50,327 bases of DNA, taken from positions 1 to 50,327 of the forward strand of contig DATNIJ010000048.1 in the NCBI GenBank assembly GCA_035604475.1, in the 5' to 3' direction. Both the position numbers and the translations under genes were made by a program. Shown one piece after another: positions 21,439-48,537 of this stretch (position 1 is its first letter; the number at the start of each line of letters is the position of its first letter). The notes beneath the pieces were generated by a model, which was not told the origin of the DNA, ran no database searches, and was given only the letters and a program-made list of their open reading frames with translations. This stretch comes from Alphaproteobacteria bacterium (lineage in GTDB: Bacteria; Pseudomonadota; Alphaproteobacteria; JACZXZ01).

Positions 21439-21514
<76 letters not shown>

Positions 21515-25002: not shown

Positions 25003-25120
25003 AGGACTGGCGCAGCGCCACCCCGTCCCTCCTGGCCATGAGCTGGCTTCCCCCCGAAGGGGGAGGGAGTGTCATCTCACGCGCCGATGATTCGTCGTAC
25101 AGCCACGCGACAGGCGCCGC

Positions 25121-30416: not shown

Positions 30417-32195
30417 TCAAAGCTTGAACGAAGTCTGCGCCAGCTGCTCGCTCGCGTAACGATAACCGATCTCGACAGCGCGATCGAAGGCCTTCCAGTC
30501 GAGGATGTCGACCGCCTCGAGCGGCGGGACGAGGAGGAGGTCGGCCTGCCGCCGCGCCAGCTCGTTCTGGATGTCCGAGCTGATGGTGCCGGCGCGCACG
30601 AGAACGGGAACGATCCAAGGCACGCCCCGGCGGCCCTTGAAGAGAAGCCGCCAGAGCGGCACGTTCTCCAGATCTTCCACGGCCGAGGTGAGCCCCCGCG
30701 TGGCGCCCACATTGACGCCGATCACCGGGCCGCGGTGCTGCGCGCGCATGAGATCGATGGGGAGATTGTCCATGACGCCGCCGTCGACCAGCACCTCGCC
30801 GCGCTCGATCACCGGCGGCAGCAGCCCCGGGATGGCGACGCTCGCGCGCAACGCCAGCCACAGCGGCCCGTCGCGATGCACGACCGAGCGCGCCGTCGTG
30901 AGATTGGAGGAAATGCAGAAATAAGGCCGCCACAGATCCTCGACCTGCACCTCGCCGAATTGCGCGCGCAGGAGGCGCGACACCTTACGCCCGCGGGTAA
31001 ATGCTATGAACGGCAGTGCCAAATCGGAAAGCGGATTGGTGTCCACGAAGGAGTGCCGCACCCGCGCACTCAGCTCCGCATCGGTCCATTCGAGGGCAAC
31101 GCCGGCCGCGATGATGGCGCCCATGCTGCTGCCGGCGACAAGATCGAATGCTATTCCGGCTTCGCGCAAGGCGCGGACGACGCCGATGTGGGCGAGTCCA
31201 CGCGCGCCGCCGCCGGAGAGCACGAGCCCCACGGCGCGGCCGAGCAGAAAGCGGGCCAAGCGCGCGGTGTCGCCTGCATTGCCCGGCCGTACGCGGCAAT
31301 GGAACTTTGCTGGGATACGGCTGAGCCAAGCGGAGGATGGTGCGGGCAAGGGACCGTCGGCGGACTCGAGCAGCACGAGATCGAGCGGCCGGTGCGCCAC
31401 CTCGGCGGGAGCGAGCTCGTGGAGCAGGACCGGCGGCAAGGGCTGATCCGGGCGGCAAACCAGGAGGACTCGGTCGGCTTGGCGCAGGCAAAGCCGCGTC
31501 CAGGGTGTAATTTCCGGCTCGGCGCAATAGACGCAGAAATCGCTCGCCAACTCGCGTGCTGTGAACCATTCGCTCTCGTGAAGGCCGTCGGCGGGACCCA
31601 GGATGCACACGCGTGGCGCGTGCGAGGCGAGGGCCGCGGCAAGGGCGCGGCCGAAGCTCTCGAGCGGCAGGTGGGGGGCAAGCGGCAGGAGAGCGAAATT
31701 CCGCGAGGCGCCGCCGAGCGCATCATGGCGCAGGCGCTGCGAGAGGCGCATGGCAAGATCGCGCGCGAGCGGCAACGCCACCCGCGGGTAGCGTTCGAGA
31801 ATACGCTCGAAATCTCGCCGCGTGATCTCCAGCACCTCGCTGTCACGCAGCGCCATCACCGTGGCCGAGCGGGTCTCGCCGGAGATGAGCGCCATCTCGC
31901 CGACGGTCTCGCCCACGCCGGCTTCCGCCACCACCACCGGCTCGCCGCTCGGCCCTTCGGCGAGGACGACGAGCCGCCCCGAGACCACGAGATAGAGCGC
32001 CTCGCCTTGCTCGCCCTGGCGGAAGAGAACGCTCCCTCCCGGCAGGCTGAACCAACTCATCTCCTCGAAAAATGCGGCGGCCACGGCGGCCGGCAGGCCG
32101 CGGAAAAGCGGCGCCCCGGCAAAGCAGTCGTGAACGCCTGCGATCCGCGAAGCGAAGAACGGTCCGCTTCTCTCTTCCTCCCCAGCGCCTGCCAT
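30417..32195 (-). CDS. Cyclic-nucleotide-binding domain / patatin-like phospholipase fusion protein (NTE/RssA-like)
   Basis: 592 aa. The N-terminal cNMP domain reads GEALYLVVSGRL...VGEMALISGETRSATVMALRDSEVL. The patatin core has LVLSGGGARGLAHIGV (oxyanion), AGSSMGA (GxSxG) and VDGGVMDNLP (catalytic Asp). Confidence 0.88.
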   Translation of the reverse strand: MAGAGEEERSGPFFASRIAGVHDCFAGAPLFRGLPAAVAAAFFEEMSWFSLPGGSVLFRQGEQGEALYLVVSGRLVVLAEGPSGEPVVVAEAGVGETVGEMALISGETRSATVMALRDSEVLEITRRDFERILERYPRVALPLARDLAMRLSQRLRHDALGGASRNFALLPLAPHLPLESFGRALAAALASHAPRVCILGPADGLHESEWFTARELASDFCVYCAEPEITPWTRLCLRQADRVLLVCRPDQPLPPVLLHELAPAEVAHRPLDLVLLESADGPLPAPSSAWLSRIPAKFHCRVRPGNAGDTARLARFLLGRAVGLVLSGGGARGLAHIGVVRALREAGIAFDLVAGSSMGAIIAAGVALEWTDAELSARVRHSFVDTNPLSDLALPFIAFTRGRKVSRLLRAQFGEVQVEDLWRPYFCISSNLTTARSVVHRDGPLWLALRASVAIPGLLPPVIERGEVLVDGGVMDNLPIDLMRAQHRGPVIGVNVGATRGLTSAVEDLENVPLWRLLFKGRRGVPWIVPVLVRAGTISSDIQNELARRQADLLLVPPLEAVDILDWKAFDRAVEIGYRYASEQLAQTSFKL

Positions 32196-32347
32196 TTCCC
32201 GGCAGCCTCTTCCCAGGGCATTCAGCGCCCGGTACTGCCGGAACGCTGGTGCCGAGCCGCGAAAATCAGGGCGTCACTCCCGCCCCGGCCTCTGCTTTCG
32301 CGGGGCAGGGCGTAAATCCCGTACCCATCTACCCATGATGTCGACCG

Positions 32348-35300
32348 CTACTGCGGCGGCGCCGCAGCGCGCTGCCGCCGACCGGAAAGCCGCGCCGGCG
32401 AGGCCGACGGCTCTGCCGCCGGCAATGCCCGCAGCAGGTCTTGCATGCGCACCTCGTCCGTGACGTACCAGGGCATGCCTTTGACATCGAGATAAAGCTC
32501 CTGCATCTCGGGAAGCGTGAAGGGACGCGAGCCGAGACGCCCGAAGACCGCGATCTGATTGCCGCTCTCATCGACGCCGCGGTCGCGCTCGAGGCCCTTG
32601 GAGAGCGAGAGCGCCGGCCACTCGGTCTTGCGCCAGGCGATGAGCTCGGGCTTGGGCTCGGGGCTGAAGCCGTAGAGATTGGGCTGGCTGTCGGGCGAGG
32701 TGAGCTGGATCACCTTGAGGCCGTTCTTCCCGTCCGCCACATAGGCGAAGAGCGAGGCGTTGGTGGTGCCGACCACCACGTCATTGGCGTCGTTCATCTT
32801 GCCGTCGGCGTTGAAGATCCGCGCGAGGTGCGGATGCTCCGGGCGCTCGACGTCGATGATGGCGAGCCCGTCGCGGCCGTCCGCGACATAGGCATAGGTA
32901 CGCGCGACATAGAAGCGCCGCGCGTCCGCGAGCGGGACTGCGGCGCCCGCAACCTGCTGGGGCGCCTCGGGATGGGTCACGTCGATCACCTTGAGCCCCT
33001 CGCGGTCGAGGGCGAAGAGATAGCGGAACTGAAGCGCCGTCGCGCGCACGCCGTCGAGCTTCACCACCGCGTCGAGCTTGGGATGCAGCGGGTCGCTCAT
33101 GTCGAGCACAACGATGCCGGCGTCGGCGGCGATGTAGAAATGGTCGCCGCCGATAGTGATGTGGCGGGCCCCCTTGAGCACGCCGCCCTCGTTCCAGGTG
33201 AGCGCCCGATTGAGGAATCTGTCGCGCGGCTCGCGGGAGGAAAGCGGGTTGACGTCGGTGAGGATCAGGCCCTCCTCCGCATCCGTGATATAGGCGTAAT
33301 TGTAGATCGGGTGCATGGGCTGCTCTTGATTGTCCTCGCGCATGAGCTTGCCCTGATTGCGCGCCGGATCGATCGACTGGTTGGTCGGCAGCGCCACGCA
33401 GGTGGCGTTGCGCGAGCCGATGTGCATGTCCTGGCCGAGCGGCGAGAAGGGTGCTGTGATGATGCGCTCGGAGACGTCCTTGTTGGCGACGCTCGCCACG
33501 TCGTAGGCGCGCATGCCGTCATCGCCCTCGGCGACATAGACAAATTCGCCGCGCTCCTGGATGCAGCCGCTGCGCCCGCCGGAATGGCTGTGCGCCTCCT
33601 CGAGCTCGCGGCCGCGCGCGAGATGCGCGTTGTACCAGTCGGGATAGGCGTATTTGTGGAGGTAACTGCCGATCACGGCTTGGGGCTCGTCCCACTCCGT
33701 CACCCGCACCGCCTCAATGCCGCCGTCCTCGCCGACCCAGCTGTTGTAGCCGATGAAGTTGACGAAGTTGGTCCCGAGCAACAGGAGCTGCGCCATGATC
33801 GCGTTGTTGTCGTTGGCCTCTGAGAGGTGGCAGTCGGTGCAGGTCTTGGTCTCGGTGGTGCGCTCGGTGTGCGGAAAGTGGGGTGCGAAGGCCTGGCTGC
33901 TGTAGCCGCTTGCGGCGATCGGCGGCTGCTGGATGTAGATGCGCTCGCGATTGATGTTGGTCGAGCTCAGCACCAGCGCCGAGGACGAGCGCACCGGCGC
34001 TATGATATTGCCCTCGACCGTGCTGTGCTTGCCGAGCTGGAACATGTCGTCGCGCGCAACTTGCGGATTGTAGGAGGCGAAGTTGCGGGTGATGCCGCCT
34101 TCGTAATGGTGCCGCTCGGTGCGCCAGTTGGCCTGGATCGGCAGGTGGCAGCCGCTGCAGCTCGTGGTCCACGAGGTATGGCAGCTGTAGCAGGCCATCT
34201 CGCTGCTCTTGTGCGCCAGGTCGGCCTCCGGCACGCCCGGGCCCCATTTGAAGGTGGTGCCCTTCGCCATCAGCTTGGCGCGCGCGGCGCGGGGGTTGAA
34301 GCGGGGATTGTTGGGATCGACGGTGTCCTTGACGAGGCTCACCTCCCACTCGAGCTTGGGATCGACGGCGGAGTGCTGGATGAGCTTGTCGCCGCGCCAC
34401 TCGAAGCGCCGCTGGCCGTCCTGGTTGCGCAGGAGGGCGAGGTCGTAGCCGCCTGGCTGCGCCGCGGGCCCGCTGGTCATGAGGGTGGGATAGCGCTCGA
34501 TAGTGCCGTGGCAATCGACGCAGCGGATCTCGATCGCCGACATCACCTCGCCGTAGATGTAGCCGTTGCCGTGGGCGTCCTGGCTGAAGTGGCAGTCGAC
34601 GCACTGCATGCCCTTGTCCACGTGGATCGAGCTCAGATGGACCGCCTTCTTGGCCCACGCCGGATCCTCGCGCGGCACGATCTGGCCCTTGGCGTCGAGC
34701 AAATCGCCCTTGCGGTCCTGCTTGAAGACGGCGCGGAAGTTCCAGCCGTGACCGTGATAGTCGGCGAACTGCGTCATCTTGAGCTTGGGGTTGAGCTCGC
34801 TCACCTGGTCGAGGAAGGCGGGGTCGCCCCACTTGCCGCGGATCGCCGCCTCCTCGGGATTGCGGTCGAGGATCGCCCGCGCCTCGGCGTCGCTCGGATA
34901 CTTCTGCTTCGCCGGCCACATGAAGGGTGCGTCCGCCTCGTAGTCCCACATGGTGTAGCCCAGCATGGTGTTGAGGAACATGTTGGGCTGGTGCATATGG
35001 CAGATCATGCATTGGCTGGTCGGGATCGCGTTCGTGAAGGAGTGGTGGATCGGATGCCCCGGCTCGTGCTTGGGGACGGTGGGGTCGGTGCTGGCGCTCT
35101 CGCCGTTGTGGCCGTAGACGGCATAGGGGCCAGAATGGCGAGGATCGCGGTCGTTGGCATAGACGACGTGGCAGGCGCCGCAGCCCGAGGTGCGGTAGTC
35201 GCCCGGATTGTCGTTGGTGCCGAGGAACCAGGTATAGGGATCATTGAGGCGCGTCTTGGCGAGGTTGAGCACCGGCACCGCGATCCTGAGCCCGGTGCCG

Positions 35301-36169
35301 AGCCCGCGGTTCGACTGGCGGATGTCCGGCTTGCCGGGCATCTCGAGCACCTGCAGCTTGCCCTCCGCATCGGGATTGCCGATGTCGGGGAACGCCGAGC
35401 CGATGCTGATGCCGCCGCGCTCGAAGACGCGGAAGATGTCGGCGGGCGGCACCACCTCCCAGGCCGGCAGCGGCAGGAGCTTCGGCAGGATGCCGTGGCT
35501 CTTCATGAGCGCGTCGGGATCCTTCGGGTTCTTGGCGATCGCCGCGGTGCCGTCCCGCGTATAGGCCTCGCCGAGAATGTAGTTCTTGTAGGGCAGGATG
35601 CCGTTGTTGTAGGAGGCCCCGCCCCAGAACATGGCGGCATTCGCCATCAGGCTGCGCTCGGCCGCCTCGATGATCTCGAGATGACAGGCGCCGCAGGCCT
35701 CGCGCGCGACGCGCAGGTCGCTCGGGTTGACGAAGCGGATGAACTCGGGCGCCTCGCGGTTGAGCAGCGTGTAGCTCTCCGCGGGCTTGCGGCTCTTGGG
35801 ATAGCCCCAGCTCTTGGGATAGCGCGGCAGCACGTGGGCGCGATTCATTGCCTCATCGTAGGCGGGCGTCCCGGACGCCCCCTGCCCCGGCCCCATCACT
35901 TGCGCATTGCCGCCGTGGCAGTCGGTGCAGCCGAGCGTCACTATGTCGCTCTCGTGCATGGTCAGGCTGTCGGTCGTGGTGTGGCAGGAGCGGCAGCCGG
36001 CACTCTTCGCCTTGGCCTCCTCCGGGAGCTGCGCCCGCGGCGCCGGCGGAGCCGGCGCGTAATGCACCTCGCGCGGGCTCTCCTCCTCGGGCATGGCCTC
36101 GAGGAAGCCGGCGCCCCCGAGGAGGAGCCAGGCCGAAGCCAGCAGCAGGACGGACGAGAGGCGGCGCAT
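32348..36169 (-). CDS. Secreted decahaem c-type cytochrome fused to a C-terminal LVIVD-repeat (beta-propeller-type) domain
   Basis: 1273 aa with signal peptide MRRLSSVLLLASAWLLLGGAGFLEA. Ten CxxCH motifs: CRSCH, CTDCH, CGACH, CGACH, CMICH, CVDCH, CVDCH, CYSCH, CSGCH, CTDCH. Six LVIVD-like repeats follow: FVYVAEGDDGMRAYDV, YAYITDAEEGLILTDV, FYIAADAGIVVLDM, YLFALDREGLKVIDV, YAYVADGRDGLAIIDV, FAYVADGKNGLKVIQL. Confidence 0.85.
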   Translation of the reverse strand: MRRLSSVLLLASAWLLLGGAGFLEAMPEEESPREVHYAPAPPAPRAQLPEEAKAKSAGCRSCHTTTDSLTMHESDIVTLGCTDCHGGNAQVMGPGQGASGTPAYDEAMNRAHVLPRYPKSWGYPKSRKPAESYTLLNREAPEFIRFVNPSDLRVAREACGACHLEIIEAAERSLMANAAMFWGGASYNNGILPYKNYILGEAYTRDGTAAIAKNPKDPDALMKSHGILPKLLPLPAWEVVPPADIFRVFERGGISIGSAFPDIGNPDAEGKLQVLEMPGKPDIRQSNRGLGTGLRIAVPVLNLAKTRLNDPYTWFLGTNDNPGDYRTSGCGACHVVYANDRDPRHSGPYAVYGHNGESASTDPTVPKHEPGHPIHHSFTNAIPTSQCMICHMHQPNMFLNTMLGYTMWDYEADAPFMWPAKQKYPSDAEARAILDRNPEEAAIRGKWGDPAFLDQVSELNPKLKMTQFADYHGHGWNFRAVFKQDRKGDLLDAKGQIVPREDPAWAKKAVHLSSIHVDKGMQCVDCHFSQDAHGNGYIYGEVMSAIEIRCVDCHGTIERYPTLMTSGPAAQPGGYDLALLRNQDGQRRFEWRGDKLIQHSAVDPKLEWEVSLVKDTVDPNNPRFNPRAARAKLMAKGTTFKWGPGVPEADLAHKSSEMACYSCHTSWTTSCSGCHLPIQANWRTERHHYEGGITRNFASYNPQVARDDMFQLGKHSTVEGNIIAPVRSSSALVLSSTNINRERIYIQQPPIAASGYSSQAFAPHFPHTERTTETKTCTDCHLSEANDNNAIMAQLLLLGTNFVNFIGYNSWVGEDGGIEAVRVTEWDEPQAVIGSYLHKYAYPDWYNAHLARGRELEEAHSHSGGRSGCIQERGEFVYVAEGDDGMRAYDVASVANKDVSERIITAPFSPLGQDMHIGSRNATCVALPTNQSIDPARNQGKLMREDNQEQPMHPIYNYAYITDAEEGLILTDVNPLSSREPRDRFLNRALTWNEGGVLKGARHITIGGDHFYIAADAGIVVLDMSDPLHPKLDAVVKLDGVRATALQFRYLFALDREGLKVIDVTHPEAPQQVAGAAVPLADARRFYVARTYAYVADGRDGLAIIDVERPEHPHLARIFNADGKMNDANDVVVGTTNASLFAYVADGKNGLKVIQLTSPDSQPNLYGFSPEPKPELIAWRKTEWPALSLSKGLERDRGVDESGNQIAVFGRLGSRPFTLPEMQELYLDVKGMPWYVTDEVRMQDLLRALPAAEPSASPARLSGRRQRAAAPPQ

Positions 36170-36179
36170 GGCGCTGATC

Positions 36180-37970
36180 TCAGTAGGTCAAGACGATATC
36201 GGCGAGCACGGAATAGAGGTAGCGCTGCTTGTCCTGGGACACATAGAGGTCCTTGAAGCCCTGCTGCGGAATGAGGATGCCACCGGACAGCCGCAGCACG
36301 ACGTTCTGCGTGAAGAACGGCCGGTAGGTCAATGCCGCCGAGAGATCGAAACCGATGCGGTCCTGGATCTCGCCCTGCTGGCGCAGCACCTCGAGCACGG
36401 AGGTGTTCTGGAAGCGCAGGTAATTGGCGTTGGTCGAGAGCTTGAGCTCGGGGAGGATGTCGGCATCCGAGCCGACGCCGAAAAGCAGCAGGCCCGGGTT
36501 GATGAAGTTCGATTGCCCCTGGTCCTCCGAGGTGCGCAGCGAGGGCAGAATCGCGTTGCGGCCGGAGAGCACGACGCCGCCGCCGCCGATGAAGGGAATG
36601 GCCTGGCGGATCCAGTAGCTGGTATCGGCGCCGGCGAACTGCGGGTTCTCCATGATGGCGTCGAAGCCCGTCTCGGTCCTGCCGTAGGGATTGCGGTCGC
36701 CGCTGGCGTAGAGGCCCGAGAGCCGCACGCGCAGCCAGTCGAAGTCCACCGAGGGCTCGATCGCCGCGAACTCGGCGCGGATGTCGGCGGGCTTGCCGCT
36801 GAAGGTGTTGTGACTGTCGTAGCCGTTCGCGTAGTAGGCCGAGCTCATCAGGTTGAAGCGGCCGATATGGCCGTTCATGTTCCAGCCGGCGTAGGTCACG
36901 TCGTAATTATGCCCGCGCTCGTCGCCGATGGGGGCCGGGCGGACGAGGAAGTCGTTGTCGTCGTAGAAGCGCTCGCCGCGCTCGCGGTTGCGGTTGTAAA
37001 CGACGGTGATCTGCTGGGTCAGGCCGGGCCAGGGCAGGTCCTGGCGGTAGAGGTTGGTGACGAGGACCCAATCCTTGCGCCGCGCCTGGGTCACGTCGTT
37101 GAGCCCGCTGTCGGTGTCCTTCTCCAGGCGCTGGAACATGGCAAGGTTGTACTGCCAGAGATTGTTGTCGCGGTTGCCGAAAAGCCGCGCGCCGAGCTGG
37201 TCGTCCTGGAAGAGGAAGCCGCGGAAATCGGTGGAGAAGGGCTGAATGCCGACGCGCAGCGAATCGAAATCGTAGCGCTCCGAGACGTCGCGCAGGTGGT
37301 AGTCGATGAACGCTTCCTGCAAGCCGACGAAGGTCTTCTGACGCGTGTCGCCCTTGCGCGGGTCGGCATTGACGATGCCGACCTCGTCGACCGAAAGGTA
37401 ATTGACGTTGAAGACCGGCGTCACCCGGAACTCGAACTCGGGCGGCTTGAAGGCGGTGTCGCCCTTGGTGAAGGAGAAGCTCGAAAGCAGATTCTCGTTG
37501 ATGAAGGCTTGGCCGATGCGGCCGTAGGTGTCGATCTCGCGCGAGTTCTTGGTCGACTGCACGCCGACCGGCGTCGGCACCGTGCGCGGCTCGAACACCG
37601 TATCGTTGACGAAGGACGTGCTGAAGAACCAATCGTTGCCGAAGAGCGGCCGGTCGCCCTTGAAGGTGTTCTGGCTGTAAGGATTCCACCAGTGCTCGTT
37701 AACCCCGATCTCCTCGATGAGGCGCCAGCGGTCCGGCACGGGGATGAACTCGCGAGGATAATCGCGCGTGGGCGGCGCCACCGCAGGGGGGCCGGTCTCG
37801 GGCGCCGGCGTCTCCTCGACCGGCGGCGGCTGGCCGGGCAGCCGCCGCCCGTCCTGGGCGATGTCGAGGTCCTCGGCGAGGGAAGGCTCGATTTGATATC
37901 CGGCCGCCCGCGCCGGGTGCGACAGCGAAAGCGCGAGCCCGACTGCCAGTAGCATGGACCACGGGCGCAC
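36180..37970 (-). CDS. Putative outer-membrane beta-barrel protein (porin-like)
   Basis: 596 aa with signal peptide MRPWSMLLAVGLALSLSHPARA. A Pro-rich N-terminal segment is followed by a long region of alternating hydrophobic/aromatic dipeptide pattern. The C-terminus ...ADIVLTY carries an OMP-type terminal aromatic. It is 10 nt from the downstream cytochrome gene and 9 nt from the upstream gene. GTG start at 37970, or ATG at 37955. Confidence 0.65.
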   Translation of the reverse strand: MRPWSMLLAVGLALSLSHPARAAGYQIEPSLAEDLDIAQDGRRLPGQPPPVEETPAPETGPPAVAPPTRDYPREFIPVPDRWRLIEEIGVNEHWWNPYSQNTFKGDRPLFGNDWFFSTSFVNDTVFEPRTVPTPVGVQSTKNSREIDTYGRIGQAFINENLLSSFSFTKGDTAFKPPEFEFRVTPVFNVNYLSVDEVGIVNADPRKGDTRQKTFVGLQEAFIDYHLRDVSERYDFDSLRVGIQPFSTDFRGFLFQDDQLGARLFGNRDNNLWQYNLAMFQRLEKDTDSGLNDVTQARRKDWVLVTNLYRQDLPWPGLTQQITVVYNRNRERGERFYDDNDFLVRPAPIGDERGHNYDVTYAGWNMNGHIGRFNLMSSAYYANGYDSHNTFSGKPADIRAEFAAIEPSVDFDWLRVRLSGLYASGDRNPYGRTETGFDAIMENPQFAGADTSYWIRQAIPFIGGGGVVLSGRNAILPSLRTSEDQGQSNFINPGLLLFGVGSDADILPELKLSTNANYLRFQNTSVLEVLRQQGEIQDRIGFDLSAALTYRPFFTQNVVLRLSGGILIPQQGFKDLYVSQDKQRYLYSVLADIVLTY

Positions 37971-37979
37971 GGGGCGGCC

Positions 37980-39884: not shown

Positions 39885-40003
39885 CTCCCCCCTTTGGCGC
39901 GCATCCCCTATGCGTGCCAGCCCCGATTAAAAGGCATAGGGTGGCGGAGGTCAAGATGCCGGCCGCGCTTTCTTCATTTTCTTTCCGATAGTTGGCCGGC
40001 TCG

Positions 40004-41686: not shown

Positions 41687-41707
41687 GGCGGGCGACCTTC
41701 GCGGATC

Positions 41708-42544
41708 TCAGAAATAAAAGAAGACCAAGACGATATGGGCGGTGAGGGCGGCGAGCAGCGCGAAGGCGAGCGGCACATGGACGTAGAGCCAGATCTCCAT
41801 CAGCGCCTTGTAGCGGAGGTCGAGCCGGACCTGCGCAACCAGCGCCTGCTTGCGCTGGAGCTCGCGGCGCAGGCGCATGACCGGCACGTCGAGCTTGGCG
41901 GGCACGGTGGCCGCGAGCTCTTCGATCCGGGCCAGCGCCCGCGTCGTGCCGCAGTTGCGATCGACGCCGCTCAACTGCCGGCGCAGCGAGCCGCCGATGC
42001 GCGTCTCCTGGTGGCTGATCCGCACCGCGGCGGCAAAATCGTCCGGCAGGTTGAGGCACGCCGCGCGCGATTCGCGGTCGATGTCGGCGAGCTTGATGAG
42101 CATGCTGCGCAAGGTCTCGCCGCGGCGGTTGTCGGTCATGAGCCGGGGATAGCGCGCATAGACGTAGATGCCGAAGAGGCCGCTCCCGATCACCATCATC
42201 ATGAGGGCATAGGCCAGCGTGTGGATGTTCCAATGGAAGCGGAAGCCGGTGTGCAGGGTGGCAATGACGGCGAGCGCCAGGCCGAAGTAGACGTGGCCGG
42301 AAAGCCAGGCCTCGAGCCGCCACTCGCCGGGGCCGTAGCGGCGCTTGCGCACGCCGAACCACATCAGCCAGACGACGAGAAGTGCTGCCACCGTGCCGAG
42401 CGTGTAGCCGAGCCAGGTGCTGCCGCTCGGCACGCCGCGCGGCGAGTCGACGGCGTACCAGACGAGTGCCGCCCCGGTCATCGCCGTGGCGACTTTGGGA
42501 TAGAGTAGGTTGCGGTAGACGAGGAAGGATTCGTGGAGGCTCAT
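41708..42544 (-). CDS. Integral membrane protein, about 5 TM helices with conserved-looking intramembrane histidines (possible b-haem carrier)
   Basis: The start is taken at MSLHESFLVY, where the ATG overlaps the upstream stop (ATGA at 42541-42544). Histidines sit in predicted helices (GHVYFGLALAVIATLH, NIHTLAYALMMMVIG, WLYVHVPLAFALLAALTAHIV). A soluble helical insert of about 100 aa lies between TM4 and TM5. Confidence 0.7.
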   Translation of the reverse strand: MSLHESFLVYRNLLYPKVATAMTGAALVWYAVDSPRGVPSGSTWLGYTLGTVAALLVVWLMWFGVRKRRYGPGEWRLEAWLSGHVYFGLALAVIATLHTGFRFHWNIHTLAYALMMMVIGSGLFGIYVYARYPRLMTDNRRGETLRSMLIKLADIDRESRAACLNLPDDFAAAVRISHQETRIGGSLRRQLSGVDRNCGTTRALARIEELAATVPAKLDVPVMRLRRELQRKQALVAQVRLDLRYKALMEIWLYVHVPLAFALLAALTAHIVLVFFYF

Positions 42545-44946
42545 TGCACCCCCCGGCCGAGCATCATGGTCTCCTCGGGGCCGCGCCGCACGGCGGCCCC
42601 CGTGGGACAGGCGCGCACGCAGGCGGGCCCGCCCTTGATGTCGCGGCACATGTCGCACTTGACGGCAAGCTTTGGCGCCTTGCTCTTGCCGTCGTGGCTC
42701 TTATGCGGGCTCTTGTCCTCGCCGGGGCCCGGGCCGCGGCCCAAGAGGAGCCACTGCAGGAGCCCCGGCTTCGGCGGCGGCAGTGCTGCGATCTGGATCA
42801 CGCCGTAGGGGCAGTTCACCTGGCAATTGCCGCAGCCGATGCAGCTGTCGTCGATCCACACTTCGCCGCCGGGCGCCCTGTGGATGGCATCGGGCGGGCA
42901 GTCGGTCATGCAGTGCGGATGCTCGCAGTGGCGGCACGAGGTGGGGATATGGAGCGAGCCGAAGGTCGGACCCGCCTCGCGGTCGAGGCGCGAGATGCCG
43001 TCATGGGTCTCGGCGCAGGCCTTTTCGCAATTGTCGCAGCGTACGCAGAGCGCCTCGTCGATGAGCAGCATGTCGGTCGCCTCACCGCCGCCCTGGGCGA
43101 GGAAGAATTCGAAGATGTTGCTGTGATCGATCTCCGCCTCGTGGCGCAGGTCATTGAGGAGATAGCGCCGCGCCTGCTCGTCGAACCTGGCTTTCACCTC
43201 CGGATTGTGCTCGAGCACGCGCCGCACCGCGCCGCCGTCGAGCTTGATCGCCTCGCTCTTGATCGCGGCGGTCACGGTGGCCGAGCGCGGCGCGCGGCGC
43301 AAGAGCGCCATCTCGCCCACGATCTTCCCGGCCGGAACGTAGCTCAGCACGATATCGCGGCCGCCGATCTTGCGCGACACTTTGACCGAGCCGGTGCGGA
43401 TGACGTAGACGCTGTCGTCGCCGACGGCACCCTCCTCGATGAGGCTTTCGCCGACGTTGAAGGAGACGATCTCCGCCGTGGAGGCCAAGTCGTGCAGATC
43501 CTCGTCGGAGAGGCCCTGCTCCAGATAGGCGCGCAGCTGGCGGACAAGCATGGTCTCGTCCATTAGGCGTTTGGTCGCGGGGATCGTGTTGATCAGCTTG
43601 ATGGCGGCAAAGCGCGGCACCTCGATGAGCGTGCACTCGGTCGCGGCACGGATCGTGGCGGAGCGCCGGCGCCCCGAGATGAGCCCGATCTCGCCGAAGA
43701 AGTCGCCTTTCCCGAGCGCAACAGTCCGGCTCGGGTCGTTGACATCGATCTCGATCGCGACCGTGCCGCCGAGGATCGCGAAGAGCGTGTCGCCGTAGTC
43801 GTTGCGCAGGAACACGGGCTCGCCCGGCGCTTTGACCAGTACCTCGCTGCCGAGGAGGAACTCGCGCAGCTGGAGGCGTGTGAGCCCGGAGAAGAGGCGC
43901 ACGGTTGCCACGATGCGGTCGAGCACCTCATTCACGCCGGGCCGGCCGGGGATGATCGCGAACTTCTCCTCCAGCAAGGGCTCGTCCGCGGGCAGGACGC
44001 TCTCGCCGCGGATGTACTCGATGACCTCGTATCCCTGGTTCATGCAATGCTTGATCAGCGGGTAGCCGGCCAGCGCGCCGATGATGTAGAGGCCCGGCAC
44101 GTTCGATTCGTAGGTGTTGCTGACCTCTGGGAACGACTTCGCGTCGCTGCTGCGGAACTTGACGCCGCAGGATTCGACGAACTTGCGCGGCGGATTGGCG
44201 CCGAGCCGCGCGATGATGCGGTCGCACGCGATCGTACCCTCCCCGGTGGGCCCCTTGAGCGCGATGCGGCCGGCCTCGATGCGCACGGGCTCGGCGTTGT
44301 ACTCGCACTTCAGGGTGCCGGATTCGATCGCCTGGCGGATCTGGTTGAGGTTGCCGGTCTTGGCCCGCGAGAACTCGCCGCGGCGGTTGACGATGACGAC
44401 GCGGTTCTGCCGCGCGAGCGCGATCGCGTTCTCGATCGCGGCGTCGCCCGCGCCGATGACCACGATGGATTCGTCCTTGTATTCGCCGGGATCGTCGAGC
44501 TGATACTGCACAAGCGACAGCTCCGCCCCCGGCACGGTCAACTTGTTGAGGTTGCCCTGGAGCCCGATCGCCATGACGACGTTCGCGGCGGTAATCGCGG
44601 TACCGTCCGCAAGCTTGACCTCGAAGGCGCCGCGCGAGCCGGCGATGCGCACGACCTCGCTGTTGAAGCGGACGTTGACGCCCTTCGCCTCGAGTCCAGC
44701 GCGCCAAGTGTCGAGGATGTCCTCGCGCGAGCCGGCAGCGAAGGCGAGCGCGCTCCTGAGCGGCAGGCGCGCCGGCGTCGCCATGACGTACTTGCCCTTC
44801 TGGTACTTCTGGATAGTGTCGGCGAAATGCGGAGCGCGCTCGAGGAGAAGATGCGAGACCTTGCATTCGGCGGCGCGTCCGGCGGCGCTGACGCCGGCGG
44901 GACCCGAGCCCACGATGACGACTTCGTAGCTCTCGCTCATTGCCAT
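42541..44946 (-). CDS. Fusion: TrxR-like FAD/NAD(P)H oxidoreductase (no CxxC) + two cyclic-nucleotide-binding domains + four-cluster [4Fe-4S] ferredoxin module
   Basis: About 800 aa. FAD fold VVIVGSGPAGVSAAGRAA and NAD(P)H fold IVVIGAGDAAIENAIALA. The cNMP domains read FFGEIGLISGRRRSATIRA and IVGEMALLRRAPRSATVTA. The Fe-S motifs are CVRCDNCEKAC, CRHCEHPHCMTDCP, CIGCGNCQVNCP and CDMCRDIKGGPACVRACP. I saw no redox-active CxxC in the flavoprotein part. Start at 44946 (MAMSESY) or 44940. Confidence 0.85.
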   Translation of the reverse strand: MAMSESYEVVIVGSGPAGVSAAGRAAECKVSHLLLERAPHFADTIQKYQKGKYVMATPARLPLRSALAFAAGSREDILDTWRAGLEAKGVNVRFNSEVVRIAGSRGAFEVKLADGTAITAANVVMAIGLQGNLNKLTVPGAELSLVQYQLDDPGEYKDESIVVIGAGDAAIENAIALARQNRVVIVNRRGEFSRAKTGNLNQIRQAIESGTLKCEYNAEPVRIEAGRIALKGPTGEGTIACDRIIARLGANPPRKFVESCGVKFRSSDAKSFPEVSNTYESNVPGLYIIGALAGYPLIKHCMNQGYEVIEYIRGESVLPADEPLLEEKFAIIPGRPGVNEVLDRIVATVRLFSGLTRLQLREFLLGSEVLVKAPGEPVFLRNDYGDTLFAILGGTVAIEIDVNDPSRTVALGKGDFFGEIGLISGRRRSATIRAATECTLIEVPRFAAIKLINTIPATKRLMDETMLVRQLRAYLEQGLSDEDLHDLASTAEIVSFNVGESLIEEGAVGDDSVYVIRTGSVKVSRKIGGRDIVLSYVPAGKIVGEMALLRRAPRSATVTAAIKSEAIKLDGGAVRRVLEHNPEVKARFDEQARRYLLNDLRHEAEIDHSNIFEFFLAQGGGEATDMLLIDEALCVRCDNCEKACAETHDGISRLDREAGPTFGSLHIPTSCRHCEHPHCMTDCPPDAIHRAPGGEVWIDDSCIGCGNCQVNCPYGVIQIAALPPPKPGLLQWLLLGRGPGPGEDKSPHKSHDGKSKAPKLAVKCDMCRDIKGGPACVRACPTGAAVRRGPEETMMLGRGVQ

Positions 44947-45022
44947 CCGTCGCGCGGGCGCGGAAGCGTACCAATCGGCGCGCATTGCGGATTGCCGTGC
45001 GCATGGGCACCCGTACGGTCAC

Positions 45023-45051
45023 AATCTTCAGCTTTTCGGCCTGGGTGTCAA
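45023..45051 (-). promoter_or_regulatory. Candidate promoter upstream of the oxidoreductase gene (duplicated at 48360-48388)
   Basis: The minus strand reads TTGACA, 17 nt, then AAGATT. Both hexamers and the spacing are conserved in the decayed duplicate. The -10 is weak (3/6 to TATAAT). Confidence 0.3.
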
Positions 45052-45128
45052 CGCGATCCCGCGCCTCCTTGCGCCGCGAGGGCGCGCCGCCGGCCTCGTG
45101 ACACGGCGCGCCCGACCGCCGCCAGGGC

Positions 45129-45899
45129 CTATTTGAACAGCTTTTCGCCCGACGCCGTGGCGCCGTCCACCACGCGCTGGTTCGACAATTCTTCGATCAG
45201 CGCCTTGGCTTGCACGGTGCAGCCGACCGTTGCCATCCAGCTCAGCACTTCGGCATCCGTCACGACTCTTGCGGGCATGATGCGCAGGGTCAGCTCGCGC
45301 GTCATTTCCGGCGGGGCGAAGGTGACGACATAGCCGGCGCCGTCCGCGGCCTTGACGCGCTTCGGCCAGGGCATGACGATCTGGTCCGCGGGCCACTCGA
45401 AGCTGCTGTGCTCCTTGGTGCCCTTGTGGGTGATGGTGATCGAGACGGTCTGCTTTGGCGCGGGCCGCCACAGCTCGAGCTCGGTCGCGGGCTTGATGCA
45501 CTTCGTCCCCGAGGCGGCGACGTTGATCGACCAGACCGTGGGCGTTTTGGCGGCGGCGCCCAAGCCCCGCGTCAAGCCGAGGGTGGTCAAGCCGCTCGAG
45601 CCCTCGGTCGTGACGATGGCGGCCATCCGCGTGAGCAGGCTGGGGCCGTCCGCCCGATCTTCCCCGCCCGGGATGCCGTTGTAGGGCCCCCTCACGGTAA
45701 CCACCTGGCCGCTCTCGTCCATCAGCACGACGTAGTTGTCGGCCTTGACAGCGAACTTTTGGCTGCCGTCCACGGTGTCGCCCTTCTGCAGCCCGGTGTC
45801 GGGCGAGCTCTCGAGCACGAGGAGCTTCGCCGCACTCGCCGGCACGGCCGAGAGCAGGAGTGCGGCGAGCACAAGCGCAAATCGTGACCAGCGCATCAT
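45129..45899 (-). CDS. Secreted hypothetical protein translationally coupled to the CHASE2 cyclase
   Basis: The start is taken at MMRWSRFALVLAALLLSAVPASA (signal peptide), giving 256 aa. The start overlaps the cyclase stop (ATGATG/TGA at 45896-45899). No motif was recognised with confidence; the N-terminal half is possibly a FecR-like beta-sandwich. Confidence 0.7.
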   Translation of the reverse strand: MMRWSRFALVLAALLLSAVPASAAKLLVLESSPDTGLQKGDTVDGSQKFAVKADNYVVLMDESGQVVTVRGPYNGIPGGEDRADGPSLLTRMAAIVTTEGSSGLTTLGLTRGLGAAAKTPTVWSINVAASGTKCIKPATELELWRPAPKQTVSITITHKGTKEHSSFEWPADQIVMPWPKRVKAADGAGYVVTFAPPEMTRELTLRIMPARVVTDAEVLSWMATVGCTVQAKALIEELSNQRVVDGATASGEKLFK

Positions 45900-47944
45900 T
45901 TGTCCTCCAACATGATTGTGATGCCAGTCTCCCCCCGCCGCAAGCGTTCCAGATGGAACGCCGCGAGCGGGTCCTCGGGCTGGCGTCGGTGGAGCGCCTC
46001 GAAGGCGCCCAAGGCTTGAGGGGAGCCTTGCCGCAGCAGCTCGAAGGCCGCGCAATAGTCGGCAAGGCCCGGAGACTCGTCCGCGGCAGGCGCGAAGACC
46101 GCGACGCTGTGCGCTTTGCCGCGTAGCACCACGTCGCCGACCGGCCGCAAGGGAATGTCGCCCGCCTCGGCCACCACCGCCTCGCTCGCGGCGATATCGG
46201 TATTGAAGTACTTGTTCGCACCCTCGAGCCGCGCCACGGTATTCACCGCGTCGCCGTGCGCCATGTATTCGAGCCGGGCGGCGCCGCCGAAATTGCCGAC
46301 CGTGGCGAGGCCGCGGTGGACGCCTATTCGAGTGCGCCCGAAATCGAGCCCTTCCGCCGCCGCCTTTCGGCGCTCTTCCTTGGCGAAGCGGTTCATTGCG
46401 AGTGCCGAGCGGAGCGCGTGCGCCGCCTGCTCGGGGTCATCGAGGGGCGCTCCCCAGAAGGCGAGGACCGCATCGCCGATGAAGCCGGCGACGGTGCCCT
46501 TGTGATCATAGATGATGCTCGTCATGCCGCTGAGATAGCGATTGAGCGCCGGCACCAGGGCCTTGGGATCCGCACTCTCGCACAGCGTGGTGAAGCCGGA
46601 GATGTCGGTATAGACGAAGCTCATCATGCGCCGCTCGCCGCCGAGCTTCATGTCCTCGGGGTGGAAGAGCAGGTGATCGACGACCTCCGAGGGCACGTAG
46701 CGGGTCAGGACCGAACGGATGAAGCGCCGCTCCGCGGCGTGGAGCTGGCGCGCGTGGGCAATGCCGATCGTCATGGCGATGAGGAAACCGGCGGCCGGCG
46801 TCACGAGCGGGAAGATCGGCCCCGGCGTCACCACCGGCGCCGTGGCGCCGCCATAGTGAAAGATCGCCCCGGCCGCGGCCAAGAGCAGCATGATCGTGGC
46901 GAACCCGACGGTCACGCGCAGCGACCACGCCATCTCCCGGCGGCCGATGAGGAAGCCGAAGGCGGCCAGGCCGGCAATGAGCAAATCCGCGGCCCACGAG
47001 GGCACCGCCTCGACCTCGCGCCCGTCGAGAAGCTGGGCCAGGCCTTGCGCCTGAAGATAGACCCCCGGCGTGGCAGATTGGCCAGTCAGCGGATCGCTGG
47101 CAAAGGGCGTGCGGTGGAGATCGACATTGAGAAGATTGGCGCCGATGAGCACGACGCGATGGGCAAGCGTGCTGCTTTGCACCCGCCAGATCTGCGGCAT
47201 CTCGGGAAAGAGCAGGTGCGCCGGAAAGCGAATGAAGGGCTGCTGGTCCTTGAAGGGATGGCCGTAATAGGCGAGCGGCAGCGTGAGGCCGGGGGGCGCC
47301 GCGCCCCCGGCGCTCTTGCTGAGGAGGAGATCGAAGGTCTCCCGGACCGTGCCCGCCGGCACGCGCAGGACGAGCTGCCGCACCACCCCGTCGCGATCCT
47401 CGCGCATCACGCTCAAGCCGGGCACGACGAGCGGATTGTCGATGCGCTTGATGAAGTTCTCGAGATACGTCTCCTGCCAGCGCTCGATGGCGCCCGGCGC
47501 ATTGACCGCATCGATCCAGCCCAGCACCACGGGCACGCGCACGTGGTGCAGTGCGGCCAGGAGGGCTGCATCCTTCTCGGGCTCGCTCGGCTCGTCGAAG
47601 AGCACGTCGATACCGATCGCCGCCGGTTCGGCGGAGGCCACGGTGTCGACGAGCTTGGCGAGAAGGCCGCGGTCCACCGGCGAGCGGCGGCCGATCTTGG
47701 CCGCCGTCGCCTCGTTGATCTCGACCACCGCCACCTTGGGATGCGGGGGTGCCGACGGCGCCAAGAGCGCCAGACGTAGATCGCCGAGCCAGGTCTCGAG
47801 CAGGCTGAAGGGTGGCACCCGCGCGGCGAAGAGGAGTGCTGCGAGCAGCGTCGCGAGACTTGCCGAGGAGCGCAGCCAGATCTTCCATGGGCGCGGCGAC
47901 TCTTCCAAAAGCGTAGTGCCACGCCCATCTCGGGACCGCATCAA
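45896..47944 (-). CDS. CHASE2 sensor domain - TM - class III nucleotidyl cyclase
   Basis: 682 aa. N-terminal TM, then a periplasmic CHASE2-like region (VAVVEINEAT...IGIDVLFDEP...VVLG), three TM helices, then the cyclase domain (MSFVYTDISGFTTL, GFIGDAVLAFWGAP, RIGVHRGLATVGNFG, GDAVNTVARLE). Confidence 0.88.
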   Translation of the reverse strand: MMRSRDGRGTTLLEESPRPWKIWLRSSASLATLLAALLFAARVPPFSLLETWLGDLRLALLAPSAPPHPKVAVVEINEATAAKIGRRSPVDRGLLAKLVDTVASAEPAAIGIDVLFDEPSEPEKDAALLAALHHVRVPVVLGWIDAVNAPGAIERWQETYLENFIKRIDNPLVVPGLSVMREDRDGVVRQLVLRVPAGTVRETFDLLLSKSAGGAAPPGLTLPLAYYGHPFKDQQPFIRFPAHLLFPEMPQIWRVQSSTLAHRVVLIGANLLNVDLHRTPFASDPLTGQSATPGVYLQAQGLAQLLDGREVEAVPSWAADLLIAGLAAFGFLIGRREMAWSLRVTVGFATIMLLLAAAGAIFHYGGATAPVVTPGPIFPLVTPAAGFLIAMTIGIAHARQLHAAERRFIRSVLTRYVPSEVVDHLLFHPEDMKLGGERRMMSFVYTDISGFTTLCESADPKALVPALNRYLSGMTSIIYDHKGTVAGFIGDAVLAFWGAPLDDPEQAAHALRSALAMNRFAKEERRKAAAEGLDFGRTRIGVHRGLATVGNFGGAARLEYMAHGDAVNTVARLEGANKYFNTDIAASEAVVAEAGDIPLRPVGDVVLRGKAHSVAVFAPAADESPGLADYCAAFELLRQGSPQALGAFEALHRRQPEDPLAAFHLERLRRGETGITIMLEDK

Positions 47945-48154
47945 GCCTCTCCCAACCGTCCCCTTAACGGGCGAACTATAACCCTAACGAGGCTCCGCCT
48001 CAGACGGACGAGGCGTGTGGTGACTGTGGCTCCGATCGCCGGTTCATGACGAGCTCTCGTAGAACCAGGCTCAGATGGGACCGATGAACGGTCTAAACGC
48101 CTTCAAGAGGCATAACCGCACGACTGGAGCCGAGGCCATGATAGCACAGAGTGT

Positions 48155-48318
48155 GGCCGGCCTCGATGCGCACGGACTCGGCGTTGTACTGGCACTTCAA
48201 GGCGCCGGAATCGATCGCCTGGCGGAGCTGGTTGAGGTTGCCGGTCTTGGTCCGCGAGAACTCGCCGCGACGGTTGACGATGACGACGCGGCTCTGCCGC
48301 GCGTTCTCGATCGCGGCG
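48155..48318 (-). pseudogene. Decayed internal fragment of a paralogue of the 42541-44946 oxidoreductase gene
   Basis: Aligns by eye to 44268-44443 with scattered substitutions and a 12-nt gap. There is no start codon and no continuation. Confidence 0.75.
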
Positions 48319-48430
48319 CATTGCGGACCGCCGTGCGCATGGGCCCCCCGTACGGCCACAATCTTCGGCTTTTCGGCCTGGGTGTCAACGCGATCCCGCG
48401 CCCTCCTTCCGCCGCGGGGGCGCGCCACCG
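48319..48430 (-). repeat. Duplicate of the oxidoreductase upstream region (44981-45090), including the candidate -35/-10
   Basis: CATTGCGGACCGCCGTGCGCATGGGCCCCCCGTACGGCCACAATCTTCGGCTTTTCGGCCTGGGTGTCAACGCGATCCCGCGCC... compares with CATTGCGGATTGCCGTGCGCATGGGCACCCGTACGGTCACAATCTTCAGCTTTTCGGCCTGGGTGTCAACGCGATCCCGCGCC... Confidence 0.8.
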
Positions 48431-48537
48431 CTCCGCCGGCAATCCGGCAGTACCGGCCGCGGCTTTCCTCGCGAGGCACCTGTTGCTATTATCGCCGCCA
48501 CGTCCGTCCGCGACAGCATAGAGCAAGGTGTAACATA

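Follow-up and report, generated by a model that had tools for sequence, protein, structure and literature searches.

A candidate multihaem electron-export system with a predicted cyclic-nucleotide-binding NAD(P)H input, encoded in an alphaproteobacterial genome and recurrent across bacterial phyla

Known multihaem electron conduits, among them Mtr, Pcc, Mto/Pio and Cyc2, are respiratory systems that are wired to the quinone pool and have been studied in a few metal-respiring or iron-oxidising specialists. The locus described here lies in a 50,327-nt contig (DATNIJ010000048.1 of GenBank assembly GCA_035604475.1; the window), which is chromosomal, high-GC (~67%) DNA from an alphaproteobacterial metagenome-assembled genome (MAG). 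A first-pass annotation, made from the letters of the window, had described nine minus-strand genes between positions 30417 and 47944 as a candidate trans-envelope electron conduit gated by cyclic nucleotides (cNMP). The likeness to MtrCAB, MtoAB and PioAB lies in the layout, with a barrel gene beside decahaem genes and a haem chain long enough for the periplasm and the outer membrane. Unlike the known conduits, the system is built from unrelated proteins, has a pyridine nucleotide as its predicted electron source and carries a predicted second-messenger receptor inside its electron-entry protein.

The reading given an even chance is that the window holds one copy of a widespread, unnamed and self-contained multihaem electron-export system. 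A scan of one genome per GTDB species finds the barrel gene in at least 580 species, and the system reaches at least five phyla, including common aerobic soil and water genera (Sphingobium, Novosphingobium, Sphingomonas and Brevundimonas). Dozens of species have the gene set in an unchanged order, so the array is more than a chance assembly. The core idea of the first-pass annotation stands; the boundaries it drew, the role it gave to the barrel and its inclusion of a patatin gene need correcting.

The conserved seven-gene unit

All nine co-directional genes of the array are present as open reading frames (ORFs) with coding-type G and C content at third codon positions (GC3 0.81-0.91), and the overlaps that had been reported were found on checking, with ATGA at 42541-42544 (oxidoreductase/membrane protein) and at 45896-45899 (cyclase/secreted protein). 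The short intergenic gaps measure 21, 9 and 10 nt, and longer gaps precede the oxidoreductase (143 nt), the HbpS-like gene (119 nt) and the patatin (152 nt); a promoter and terminator scan of the window gave nothing informative. The reported haem-motif counts were exact: 20 CxxCH in the array, ten in each of two decahaem cytochromes, and in the neighbouring plus-strand c554-like gene four CxxCH plus one CX4CH (CSGSTCH). Profile searches with Pfam and NCBIfam recovered the domains that had been named, including three cNMP-binding domains.

Homologues of the barrel and of the LVIVD cytochrome each number more than 7,900 at 90% clustering. Linkage was counted by tblastn of the window proteins against fetched loci, of which 47 have complete 10-kb flanks. 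The conserved unit consists of seven genes, listed here with the number of full-flank loci in which each was found:

Oxidoreductase: 44985-42541, minus strand, 814 residues; Pyr_redox_2/3, two cNMP_binding and Fer4 domains; 34/47 loci, several being cut by the flank end
Membrane protein: 42544-41708, minus strand, 278 residues; five transmembrane (TM) helices, marginal Ni_hydr_CYTB match; 38/47 loci
FHA-cytochrome: 41686-40004, minus strand, 560 residues; FHA and Cytochrome_C7/c3 domains, 10 CxxCH; 40/47 loci
HbpS-like protein: 39884-37980, minus strand, 634 residues; three HbpS-like (DUF336) matches; 47/47 loci
Barrel: 37970-36180, minus strand, 596 residues; 18-strand AlphaFold2 (AF2) model; 47/47 loci
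LVIVD cytochrome: 36169-32348, minus strand, 1273 residues; LVIVD and c3/C7 domains, 10 CxxCH; 47/47 loci
c554-like pentahaem cytochrome: 28842-30389, plus strand, probable start 29031; Cytochrome_C554 Pfam match; 43/47 loci

The first-pass annotation had made its model depend on the FHA-decahaem, barrel and LVIVD-decahaem genes occurring together in other genomes, and they do so in most of these loci; the set was also found at seven loci outside the Proteobacteria. It had treated the cytochrome gene at 29031-30389 as an adjacent gene only. That gene is a core member despite its opposite strand here; in other loci its usual position is immediately upstream of the HbpS-like gene, or else on the downstream side of the LVIVD cytochrome. 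The other genes in and beside the array are much less constant, and the proposed nine-gene unit gives way to one of seven:

CHASE2 cyclase: 47944-45896, minus strand, 682 residues; CHASE2 and Guanylate_cyc domains (Pfam); 10/47 full-flank loci
Secreted protein: 45899-45129, minus strand, 256 residues; signal peptide, GC3 0.90; 2/47 full-flank loci
Patatin: 32195-30417, minus strand, 592 residues; cNMP_binding, NTE_Ploop and Patatin domains; 0/47 full-flank loci
Hanks-type Ser/Thr kinase: 26041-28464, minus strand; Pkinase and DUF4384 domains, TM helix

Apart from the c554-like gene, the unit falls into two triads (oxidoreductase, membrane protein and FHA-cytochrome; HbpS-like protein, barrel and LVIVD cytochrome). 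Gene order within each triad is constant, and the two form either one operon, as in the window, or convergent units; the 119-nt gap before the HbpS-like gene matches this arrangement. The barrel lies directly upstream of the LVIVD cytochrome in every locus that reaches that far. The two invariant triads stand together in 34-47 of the 47 full-flank species loci. Cultured carriers include five species of Sphingobium as well as Novosphingobium, Sphingomonas, Tsuneonella, Pontixanthobacter and Hyphococcus; MAGs assigned to Brevundimonas, Caulobacter and Phenylobacterium also carry the system, as do several Beta- and Gammaproteobacteria. On pMSHV, a conjugative megaplasmid of Sphingobium herbicidovorans MH, the set occupies positions 801035-817324, and its genes bear only the Prokaryotic Genome Annotation Pipeline (PGAP) labels 'cytochrome c family', 'heme-binding protein', 'hypothetical', 'multiheme c-type cytochrome', 'cytochrome c3 family' and 'cyclic nucleotide-binding domain-containing protein'.

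More distant relatives were found through representatives at 50% identity, followed by a second search seeded with a distant member. Full-length relatives of the LVIVD cytochrome (40-55% identity) occur in Acidobacteria/Thermoanaerobaculia, KSB1, Wallbacteria and Nitrospirota, and seven non-proteobacterial loci were read, from Nitrospirota, Acidobacteria, KSB1, Wallbacteria and two unassigned genomes. In each of them the gene immediately upstream of the LVIVD cytochrome encodes a barrel homologue (27-44% identity). Six of them encode a protein with cNMP_binding and Fer4 domains, then a membrane protein of ~255-285 residues, then a multihaem cytochrome, and two (L088, from Nitrospirota, and L090) repeat the seven-gene order of the window exactly, L088 starting with a cyclase gene. 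Another of the seven, L089, is a reduced variant whose barrel homologue (7725-9980) carries an N-terminal AMIN domain.

Clustering of all flanking ORFs in search of a conserved terminal enzyme found none; the clusters recovered were a phosphodiesterase, a cyclase, FecR, a thiamine pyrophosphate (TPP) enzyme with an aldehyde dehydrogenase, and shadow ORFs. The system looks self-contained because the flanks hold no further conserved enzyme gene. The pair of TPP-dependent enzyme and aldehyde dehydrogenase lies near the system in 11 loci (L047 1800-5131 and 10 others) and may reflect lineage synteny or a metabolic link. A link to the type II secretion system (T2SS) looked promising in L001 and L002 but was dropped, since it recurs in only 3/83 loci, as was a link to Slam/SlipAM, seen in one locus of 83. 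Just upstream of the c554-like gene, Sphingobium and Novosphingobium loci encode a protein of ~2,050-2,140 residues without a Pfam match (L083 384-6662, L037 369-6497, L053 3-6413); in L083 this gene is preceded by one for a ShlB/FhaC two-partner-secretion transporter, and a second such transporter gene lies ~20 kb downstream.

Elsewhere in the window, the stretch 21439-26000 looks like a small island inserted at a tRNA. It begins with tRNA-Phe (21439-21514, plus strand) and continues with low GC (0.57-0.61 vs ~0.67), encoding a PIN/VapC-like ORF (23652-24077, plus strand), an unassigned 344-residue ORF (22033-23067, minus strand) and an OmpA-family ORF (25121-25921, minus strand). A TPP_enzyme_C ORF (49748-50308, minus strand) stands at the window end.

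Predicted electron entry and its cyclic-nucleotide context

The oxidoreductase has no TM segment and is predicted to be the cytoplasmic electron-entry protein of the system. It combines a YpdA/TrxR-like NAD(P)H/FAD module (Pyr_redox) with a DmsB/HycB-type ferredoxin module of four [4Fe-4S] clusters, and two cNMP-binding domains are inserted between them. In a PDB sequence search its nearest solved relatives are Bdr/YpdA flavoenzymes, the tandem cyclic-nucleotide-binding domains of PKA-R and PKG, and HycB-type ferredoxins. An alignment with 42 homologues shows that all 16 cysteines of the iron-sulfur (FeS) module are conserved, as are both phosphate-binding cassettes (FGE.GLISGRRR.AT, with …RRSAT…; GEMAL..R.ATV, with …PRSATV…). 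In the proposed pathway NAD(P)H would reduce the FAD, electrons would pass on to the four [4Fe-4S] clusters, and the two cNMP-binding domains would switch this entry step.

The membrane-protein gene always comes after the FeS-protein gene, in Proteobacteria and in other phyla. Among 54 homologues of the membrane protein, His84 and His98 on one TM helix and His256 and His270 on another are invariant. The members of each pair stand 13 residues apart, the textbook arrangement for a stack of two b haems. The protein has the four ligand histidines on two helices of the prokaryotic cytochrome b561/Ni_hydr_CYTB group and passes the Pfam gathering score by a small margin (31.3 bits vs a cut-off of 30.1). 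It is predicted to be a di-haem b transmembrane electron carrier, and electrons would cross the inner membrane over its two bis-His b haems. A basic loop of 115 residues would be cytoplasmic by the positive-inside rule and could dock the FeS module.

From the b haems electrons would load the FHA-cytochrome, which has a cytoplasmic FHA domain, one TM helix (residues 142-160) and a periplasmic 10-haem domain. All ten of its CxxCH motifs and 10 further histidines are conserved in 55 homologues. The FHA domain retains its Gly-Arg and His; the Ser position that binds phosphothreonine is Ala here and is not conserved among the homologues, and the domain also matches the phosphothreonine-independent Yop-YscD_cpl family (Pfam). 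Because of the missing phosphate-binding Ser and the resemblance to YscD, a docking role appears at least as likely as phosphothreonine reading, and this non-canonical domain would probably dock cytoplasmic partners. The wire from cytoplasm to periplasm that the first-pass annotation had sketched is thus borne out in its anatomy, with the FeS cysteines, the two His pairs and the haem motifs with their additional histidines all conserved.

The fused Pyr_redox module is present in the window and in the two loci with the same gene order, L088 and L090. In other loci outside the Proteobacteria, the cNMP_binding and Fer4 part is often a separate gene of ~510-540 residues. Two of these loci pair a flavin-less cNMP-FeS protein with a separate flavoprotein of a different kind (FHA, FAD_binding_6 and NAD_binding_1 domains in L085; Pyr_redox, FHA and Fer2 domains in L084), and both encode extra FHA-only proteins alongside. 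Because the flavin module has been replaced non-orthologously and the FeS-cNMP core kept, a pyridine-nucleotide input under cNMP control appears to be the selected function; among the comparative arguments for such an input, this replacement is the strongest. In the Wallbacteria locus (L086), an electron-transfer flavoprotein:quinone oxidoreductase gene (20232-21920, minus strand) adjoins a triad of flavin-less cNMP-FeS protein, membrane protein and cytochrome, and could be an alternative electron input or a coincidence.

Given the low potential of NAD(P)H as a donor and a membrane potential that favours the movement of electrons out of the cytoplasm, the flow would be expected to run outward. 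Such flow would be wasteful of NAD(P)H as well as of membrane potential, and bis-His haems of low potential would leak electrons to O2, so an on/off switch would make physiological sense. The opposite direction, with oxidation of a donor outside the cell or in the periplasm, for instance Fe(II) or Mn(II), and electron flow by way of the b-type protein to either quinone or the cytoplasmic flavoprotein, is considered very improbable. Multihaem conduits such as Mto/Pio do run inward (PMC10734462), the b-type protein falls marginally within a quinone-reactive family, and relatives of the system occur in groundwater Nitrospirota and in Casimicrobiaceae. However, reduction of NAD(P)+ by c-type haems should be strongly uphill and opposed by the membrane potential, and what is invariant on the cytoplasmic side is an FeS protein partnered by an NAD(P)H flavoprotein, rather than a quinone-site protein.

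In the outward pathway the signal that switches entry would probably be cAMP, made by the CHASE2 cyclase and removed by the phosphodiesterase that is linked in other genomes. The link to cyclic nucleotides that had been proposed for this array is upheld by independent recurrences in or near other copies of the system, namely the cNMP-FeS fusion in six of the seven non-proteobacterial loci, cyclases and a phosphodiesterase-like gene. CHASE2 cyclases lie within 10 kb in 17/80 genome loci (~21%), at differing positions. A metallophosphoesterase gene, with SpdA and CpdA as its best matches (both below the cut-off), directly follows the FHA-cytochrome in 36/83 loci, and Crp-type regulators adjoin the system in L037 and L077. 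Cyclases linked elsewhere carry DK[FY][IV]GD and Y[ST]xIGD, a Lys and Ser/Thr signature which we take to be that of class III adenylate cyclases; the window cyclase has AGFIGD and YMAHGD at the corresponding stretch (residues ~470-580). This CHASE2-sensor class III enzyme, linked in only a minority of loci, is a candidate source of the signal, accessory and lineage-variable. The secreted 256-residue protein is, by the overlap of the two genes, translationally coupled to the cyclase. It has no Pfam, NCBIfam, PADLOC or PDB match, and weak homologues were found beside a cyclase in two loci only (L065 and L079); FecR-domain proteins adjoin several of the linked CHASE2 cyclases in other loci.

The patatin had been counted as the last member of the array. 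Beside the system it was found only in a close relative (L001); it is no conserved member and does not belong to the system, being a neighbour and probably a separate cNMP effector. A broader version of this view, in which an independent cNMP signalling or Pycsar/CBASS-like module, made up of the cNMP-patatin and possibly of the cyclase with its secreted protein, merely adjoins the electron system, is given slightly better than an even chance and is compatible with any reading of the electron pathway. It agrees with the lack of patatin in the full-flank loci, with the 152-nt and 143-nt gaps that set the end genes apart from the core, and with the PADLOC matches, in which the cyclase matches PycC (84 bits) and the patatin matches the cNMP and phospholipase domains of Pycsar/CBASS effectors. 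A second patatin-like phospholipase, without a cNMP domain, is encoded at 48151-49665 (plus strand), divergent from the cyclase, and counts on the same side. These matches are at domain level only, however, and seven genes separate cyclase from patatin, whereas Pycsar/CBASS signalling pairs a cytosolic cyclase with a cNMP-activated effector in a compact unit of two genes. The cyclase has a CHASE2 membrane sensor, which is not known as a Pycsar feature, CHASE2 cyclases recur beside the core in unrelated arrangements, the core oxidoreductase is itself predicted to bind cNMP, and L001 also keeps the cNMP-patatin beside the system.

The Ser/Thr kinase gene neighbours the c554-like gene in the window. 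Three non-proteobacterial loci (L084, L085 and L087) have Pkinase genes no more than 10 kb from the system, and L090 has a PP2C (SpoIIE) phosphatase gene there; among proteobacterial loci a Ser/Thr kinase is linked in 1/80 only. The kinase is a possible second regulatory input through the FHA domains, a suggestion offered tentatively.

The outer half and the exit route

The c554-like protein is a periplasmic pentahaem cytochrome whose five haem motifs are all conserved in 61 homologues. It would carry electrons from the FHA-cytochrome to a terminal module at the outer membrane, composed of the HbpS-like protein, the barrel and the decahaem-propeller (LVIVD) cytochrome. With a c-type chain of 25 haems and the two b haems of the membrane protein, the pathway would total 27 haems.

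The first-pass annotation had called the first gene of the terminal module 'GlcG-like'. The gene is there, and its product is a tandem HbpS-like/DUF336 protein, with EfgA as the closest relative of solved structure. At least 46 of 75 homologues begin with a lipobox and then a linker of Gly, Ser, Pro and Thr; the window copy has a signal of the signal-peptidase-I (SPI) type. The protein is accordingly predicted from its signals to be exported, and to be an outer-membrane lipoprotein in most other lineages. An HbpS-like gene was not seen in loci L084, L085 and L089.

The barrel protein has a signal peptide, no Cys and a C-terminal ..LTY, and it has no Pfam or NCBIfam match at E up to 0.01. The AF2 model, built with 26 homologues (predicted local distance difference test score, pLDDT, 62), places 18 strands after an N-terminal region of ~110 residues that is disordered but partly conserved. 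Foldseek ranks AlgE first (E 5e-16, TM-score 0.65 normalised to target length), followed by the 18-strand Occ/OprD channels, with E from 5e-16 to 1e-9 across AlgE, OprD and Occ; MtrB is not among the 50 best matches listed, which comprise AlgE, Occ/OprD and other porins. One homologue carries the UniRef name 'Alginate export domain', and the closest, at 93% identity, comes from an 'Alphaproteobacteria bacterium'. The beta-barrel candidate of the first-pass annotation is, by this model, a true outer-membrane barrel of AlgE/OprD-like fold. It is also a narrow one, with a lumen that simple geometry would put at ~20 Å at most, against ~35 Å in the 26-strand MtrB. It is too narrow to sheath a decahaem as MtrB does, which bears on the condition set by the first-pass annotation that the barrel be wide enough to admit a cytochrome. 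Residues 442-489 form a nearly invariant Gly-rich stretch (…ENPQFAGADTSYWIRQ.IP.IGGGG…SGRN…L.SLR…GQSNF.NPG), modelled at very low confidence between strands 13 and 14, which may be a plug or a partner-binding loop.

In the LVIVD cytochrome, 10 motif positions and 10 further histidines are conserved across phyla, and its identity is 57-72% across Proteobacteria and 40-55% in other phyla. Because each of the two decahaems conserves 10 CxxCH and 10 extra histidines, both look like bis-His electron carriers rather than catalytic haem enzymes. The propeller has no Cys/His metal site or cluster conserved across phyla; Foldseek with it gave generic WD40, BamB and AztD-type propellers and no functional lead, and nothing useful came of searching PDB sequences with the barrel, the LVIVD cytochrome or the secreted protein as query. 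Several distant LVIVD cytochromes are lipoproteins, whereas the copy of the window lineage has a plain signal peptide and no lipobox. One distant metagenomic member (P0252, 1648 residues) has a large N-terminal extension packed with extra c7-type CxxCH motifs, in effect a long haem 'wire' fused to a decahaem-propeller. Attachment of the terminal module to the outer membrane is supported by the lipoprotein forms of the HbpS-like protein and of the distant LVIVD cytochromes and by the constant adjacency of the barrel; these features suggest attachment and leave the face of the membrane free.

The first-pass annotation had in effect proposed an Mtr-type complex, with the TM-anchored decahaem passing through the barrel to reach the LVIVD decahaem at the cell surface. 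The same parts, two decahaems and a barrel, are indeed adjacent and conserved, weak matches to MtrC/MtrF domains occur in 18/30 members of the LVIVD-cytochrome family, and Geobacter Pcc porins are predicted to have only ~20 strands. This arrangement is nevertheless improbable. The 18-strand barrel lacks similarity to MtrB or PioB, the first decahaem is anchored in the inner membrane and encoded in the other, often separate and convergent triad, and the window LVIVD cytochrome, which is not a lipoprotein in this lineage, reaches 13.8 bits vs a cut-off of 30 for the MtrC model (Mtrc-MtrF_II-IV_dom).

A periplasmic redox system with a substrate channel is a stronger competitor, though it too is judged unlikely. 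Here the inner half would be unchanged, the barrel would be a solute-specific channel like AlgE and OprD that lets a small or polymeric substrate in or out, the decahaem-propeller would reduce or oxidise this substrate in the periplasm, and no electron would cross the outer membrane. The barrel fold matches AlgE/OprD channels and not MtrB, the very high sequence conservation of cytochrome and barrel is as expected for a specific substrate, all partners have Sec signals with secretion-system genes rarely linked, and the hosts are mostly aerobes. Set against this, all ten haems look bis-His ligated and no ligand pattern of an open site is conserved, the propeller lacks a metal site shared across phyla, no conserved catalytic subunit is linked, and both the cytochrome and the HbpS-like protein have lipoprotein forms, which speak for a tight complex at the outer membrane and not for a free enzyme of the periplasm.

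In the export system favoured here, the terminal module would instead pass electrons to an acceptor at or beyond the outer membrane, with Fe(III)/Mn(IV), humics and O2 as candidates. The exit could use a Cyc2-like single haem or a peptide in the pore, a substrate entering the pore, or a surface-exposed partner. Several points weigh against such a pathway. Every one of its components is assigned from sequence and models, and in the AF2 model of the LVIVD cytochrome the propeller is confident and the whole haem region has pLDDT < 50. With 18 strands vs 26 in MtrB, the barrel as modelled cannot sheath a globular decahaem. The plain signal peptide of the LVIVD cytochrome here goes with secretion genes that are rarely linked (T2SS 3/83, Slam 1), its identity across proteobacterial classes is unusually high for a surface protein, and many hosts are obligate aerobes without known metal respiration. 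The window cyclase lacks the adenine-specifying Lys, having Gly and Met at the signature positions, which makes its nucleotide product uncertain. Finally, the barrel homologue of L089 is flanked by a monohaem cytochrome c and a multihaem cytochrome, with no cNMP-FeS gene.

Comparison with described systems

The first-pass annotation could match the architecture to no named system, and the searches agree: no HMM (hidden Markov model) library, genome annotation or open-literature description names it, the literature search being only partial. The defining features of Mtr/Mto/Pio, of Geobacter Ext/Pcc, of PCC3 and of Cyc2 are all lacking. MtrB/PioB porins have 26-28 strands, against 18 in the window barrel. 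MtrA/DmsE are soluble periplasmic decahaems that insert into the porin, whereas the FHA-cytochrome is TM-anchored and has no DmsE-family match; decahem_SO is matched by the c554-like protein only (18 bits vs a cut-off of 192, NCBIfam). Unlike the surface lipoprotein decahaems MtrC/OmcA, the window LVIVD cytochrome bears a propeller. Mtr conduits are fed with quinol through a CymA/NapC-type tetrahaem cytochrome, for which there is no gene within the window or the conserved flanks, whereas the input predicted here is a cytoplasmic NAD(P)H flavo-FeS protein. A Methylobacter cluster described in the literature was set aside as MtrAB-type and distinct from the window system.

Geobacter Pcc/Ext, Gallionellaceae PCC3 and Tenderiales Uet resemble the system in combining a non-Mtr barrel with periplasmic and outer multihaem cytochromes, and the Uet and Desulfovibrio clusters also include beta-propeller (NHL) proteins. 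No equivalog-level match to the Ext or Oma/Omb/Omc proteins was obtained; matches to Ext are limited to a local 50-residue stretch of ExtM (60 bits vs a cut-off of 800) and to ~21 bits vs 200 for ExtN/ExtO (NCBIfam). In PCC3 the periplasmic cytochromes have 21-27 haems and the outer ones are long and linear, with 10-35 haems (PMC10734462); identity with it is ruled out by the window proteins, which have 10, 10 and 5 haem motifs and a propeller. The LVIVD protein of Tenderiales is a separate non-haem protein (preprint), whereas the LVIVD domain of the window is fused to a decahaem. None of these clusters has a cNMP-FeS-flavoprotein input. Cyc2 offers a precedent for outer-membrane electron transfer through a narrow barrel of 16 strands, with the substrate entering the pore or a single haem in the pore; the window barrel differs in having neither Cys nor haem motif, the haems being on separate proteins. 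AlgE/AlgK and OprD/Occ provide the best structural match, with 18 strands and, in the alginate case, a lipoprotein partner encoded alongside the barrel. The window barrel is partnered with cytochromes instead and has a conserved N-terminal extension of ~110 residues and the Gly-rich loop; there is no Alginate_exp Pfam match at E up to 0.01 and no polysaccharide synthesis gene in 83 loci.

For the inner half, Hmc, Tmc, Qrc and DsrMKJOP likewise join a multihaem cytochrome in the periplasm to a b-type membrane subunit and to an FeS protein in the cytoplasm, and because they share this layout a haem/FeS wire from cytoplasm to periplasm is an established design. These complexes run inward to cytoplasmic sulfate reduction and have no NAD(P)H flavin module, cNMP domains or outer-membrane module, and the matches to HmcA and QrcA (NCBIfam) are weak and at motif level only. 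NADPH oxidases and ferric reductases (NOX/FRE) and MsrQ-Fre share another logic with the system, in which NAD(P)H reduces a flavin, electrons cross two b haems whose His ligands are paired at a spacing of 13 residues on two helices, and an acceptor is reduced at the outer face, in a tightly regulated reaction that dissipates membrane potential. The window system differs in its Pyr_redox-type flavin module, in the four-cluster ferredoxin module between flavin and haems, and in its 25-haem c-type acceptor chain, which stands in place of O2 or Fe as the direct acceptor. No window protein matches Ferric_reduct or FAD_binding_8/NAD_binding_6 in Pfam, and the relation is one of analogy in His-pair geometry and logic rather than membership.

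A doubtful extension of this analogy would make the system a bacterial counterpart of NADPH oxidase/ferric reductase that spans the whole Gram-negative envelope, driven by a CHASE2-sensed cue with a cAMP relay and perhaps by Ser/Thr phosphorylation read through FHA domains. If this were so, NAD(P)H and membrane potential would be spent deliberately on extracellular reductant or superoxide, for instance to mobilise iron or manganese, and there would be a genetic basis for the widespread and enzymatically unexplained extracellular superoxide and metal reduction of aerobic heterotrophs. On the export reading itself, regulated non-respiratory export of reducing power would be a common bacterial trait, and cyclic nucleotides would control redox chemistry directly at the protein level; cultured, genetically tractable strains such as Sphingobium herbicidovorans MH carry the system. 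Compared with what has been described, it would be a multihaem envelope conduit with a new kind of input, from a flavo-FeS protein that oxidises NAD(P)H in the cytoplasm, and with its second-messenger switch built in.

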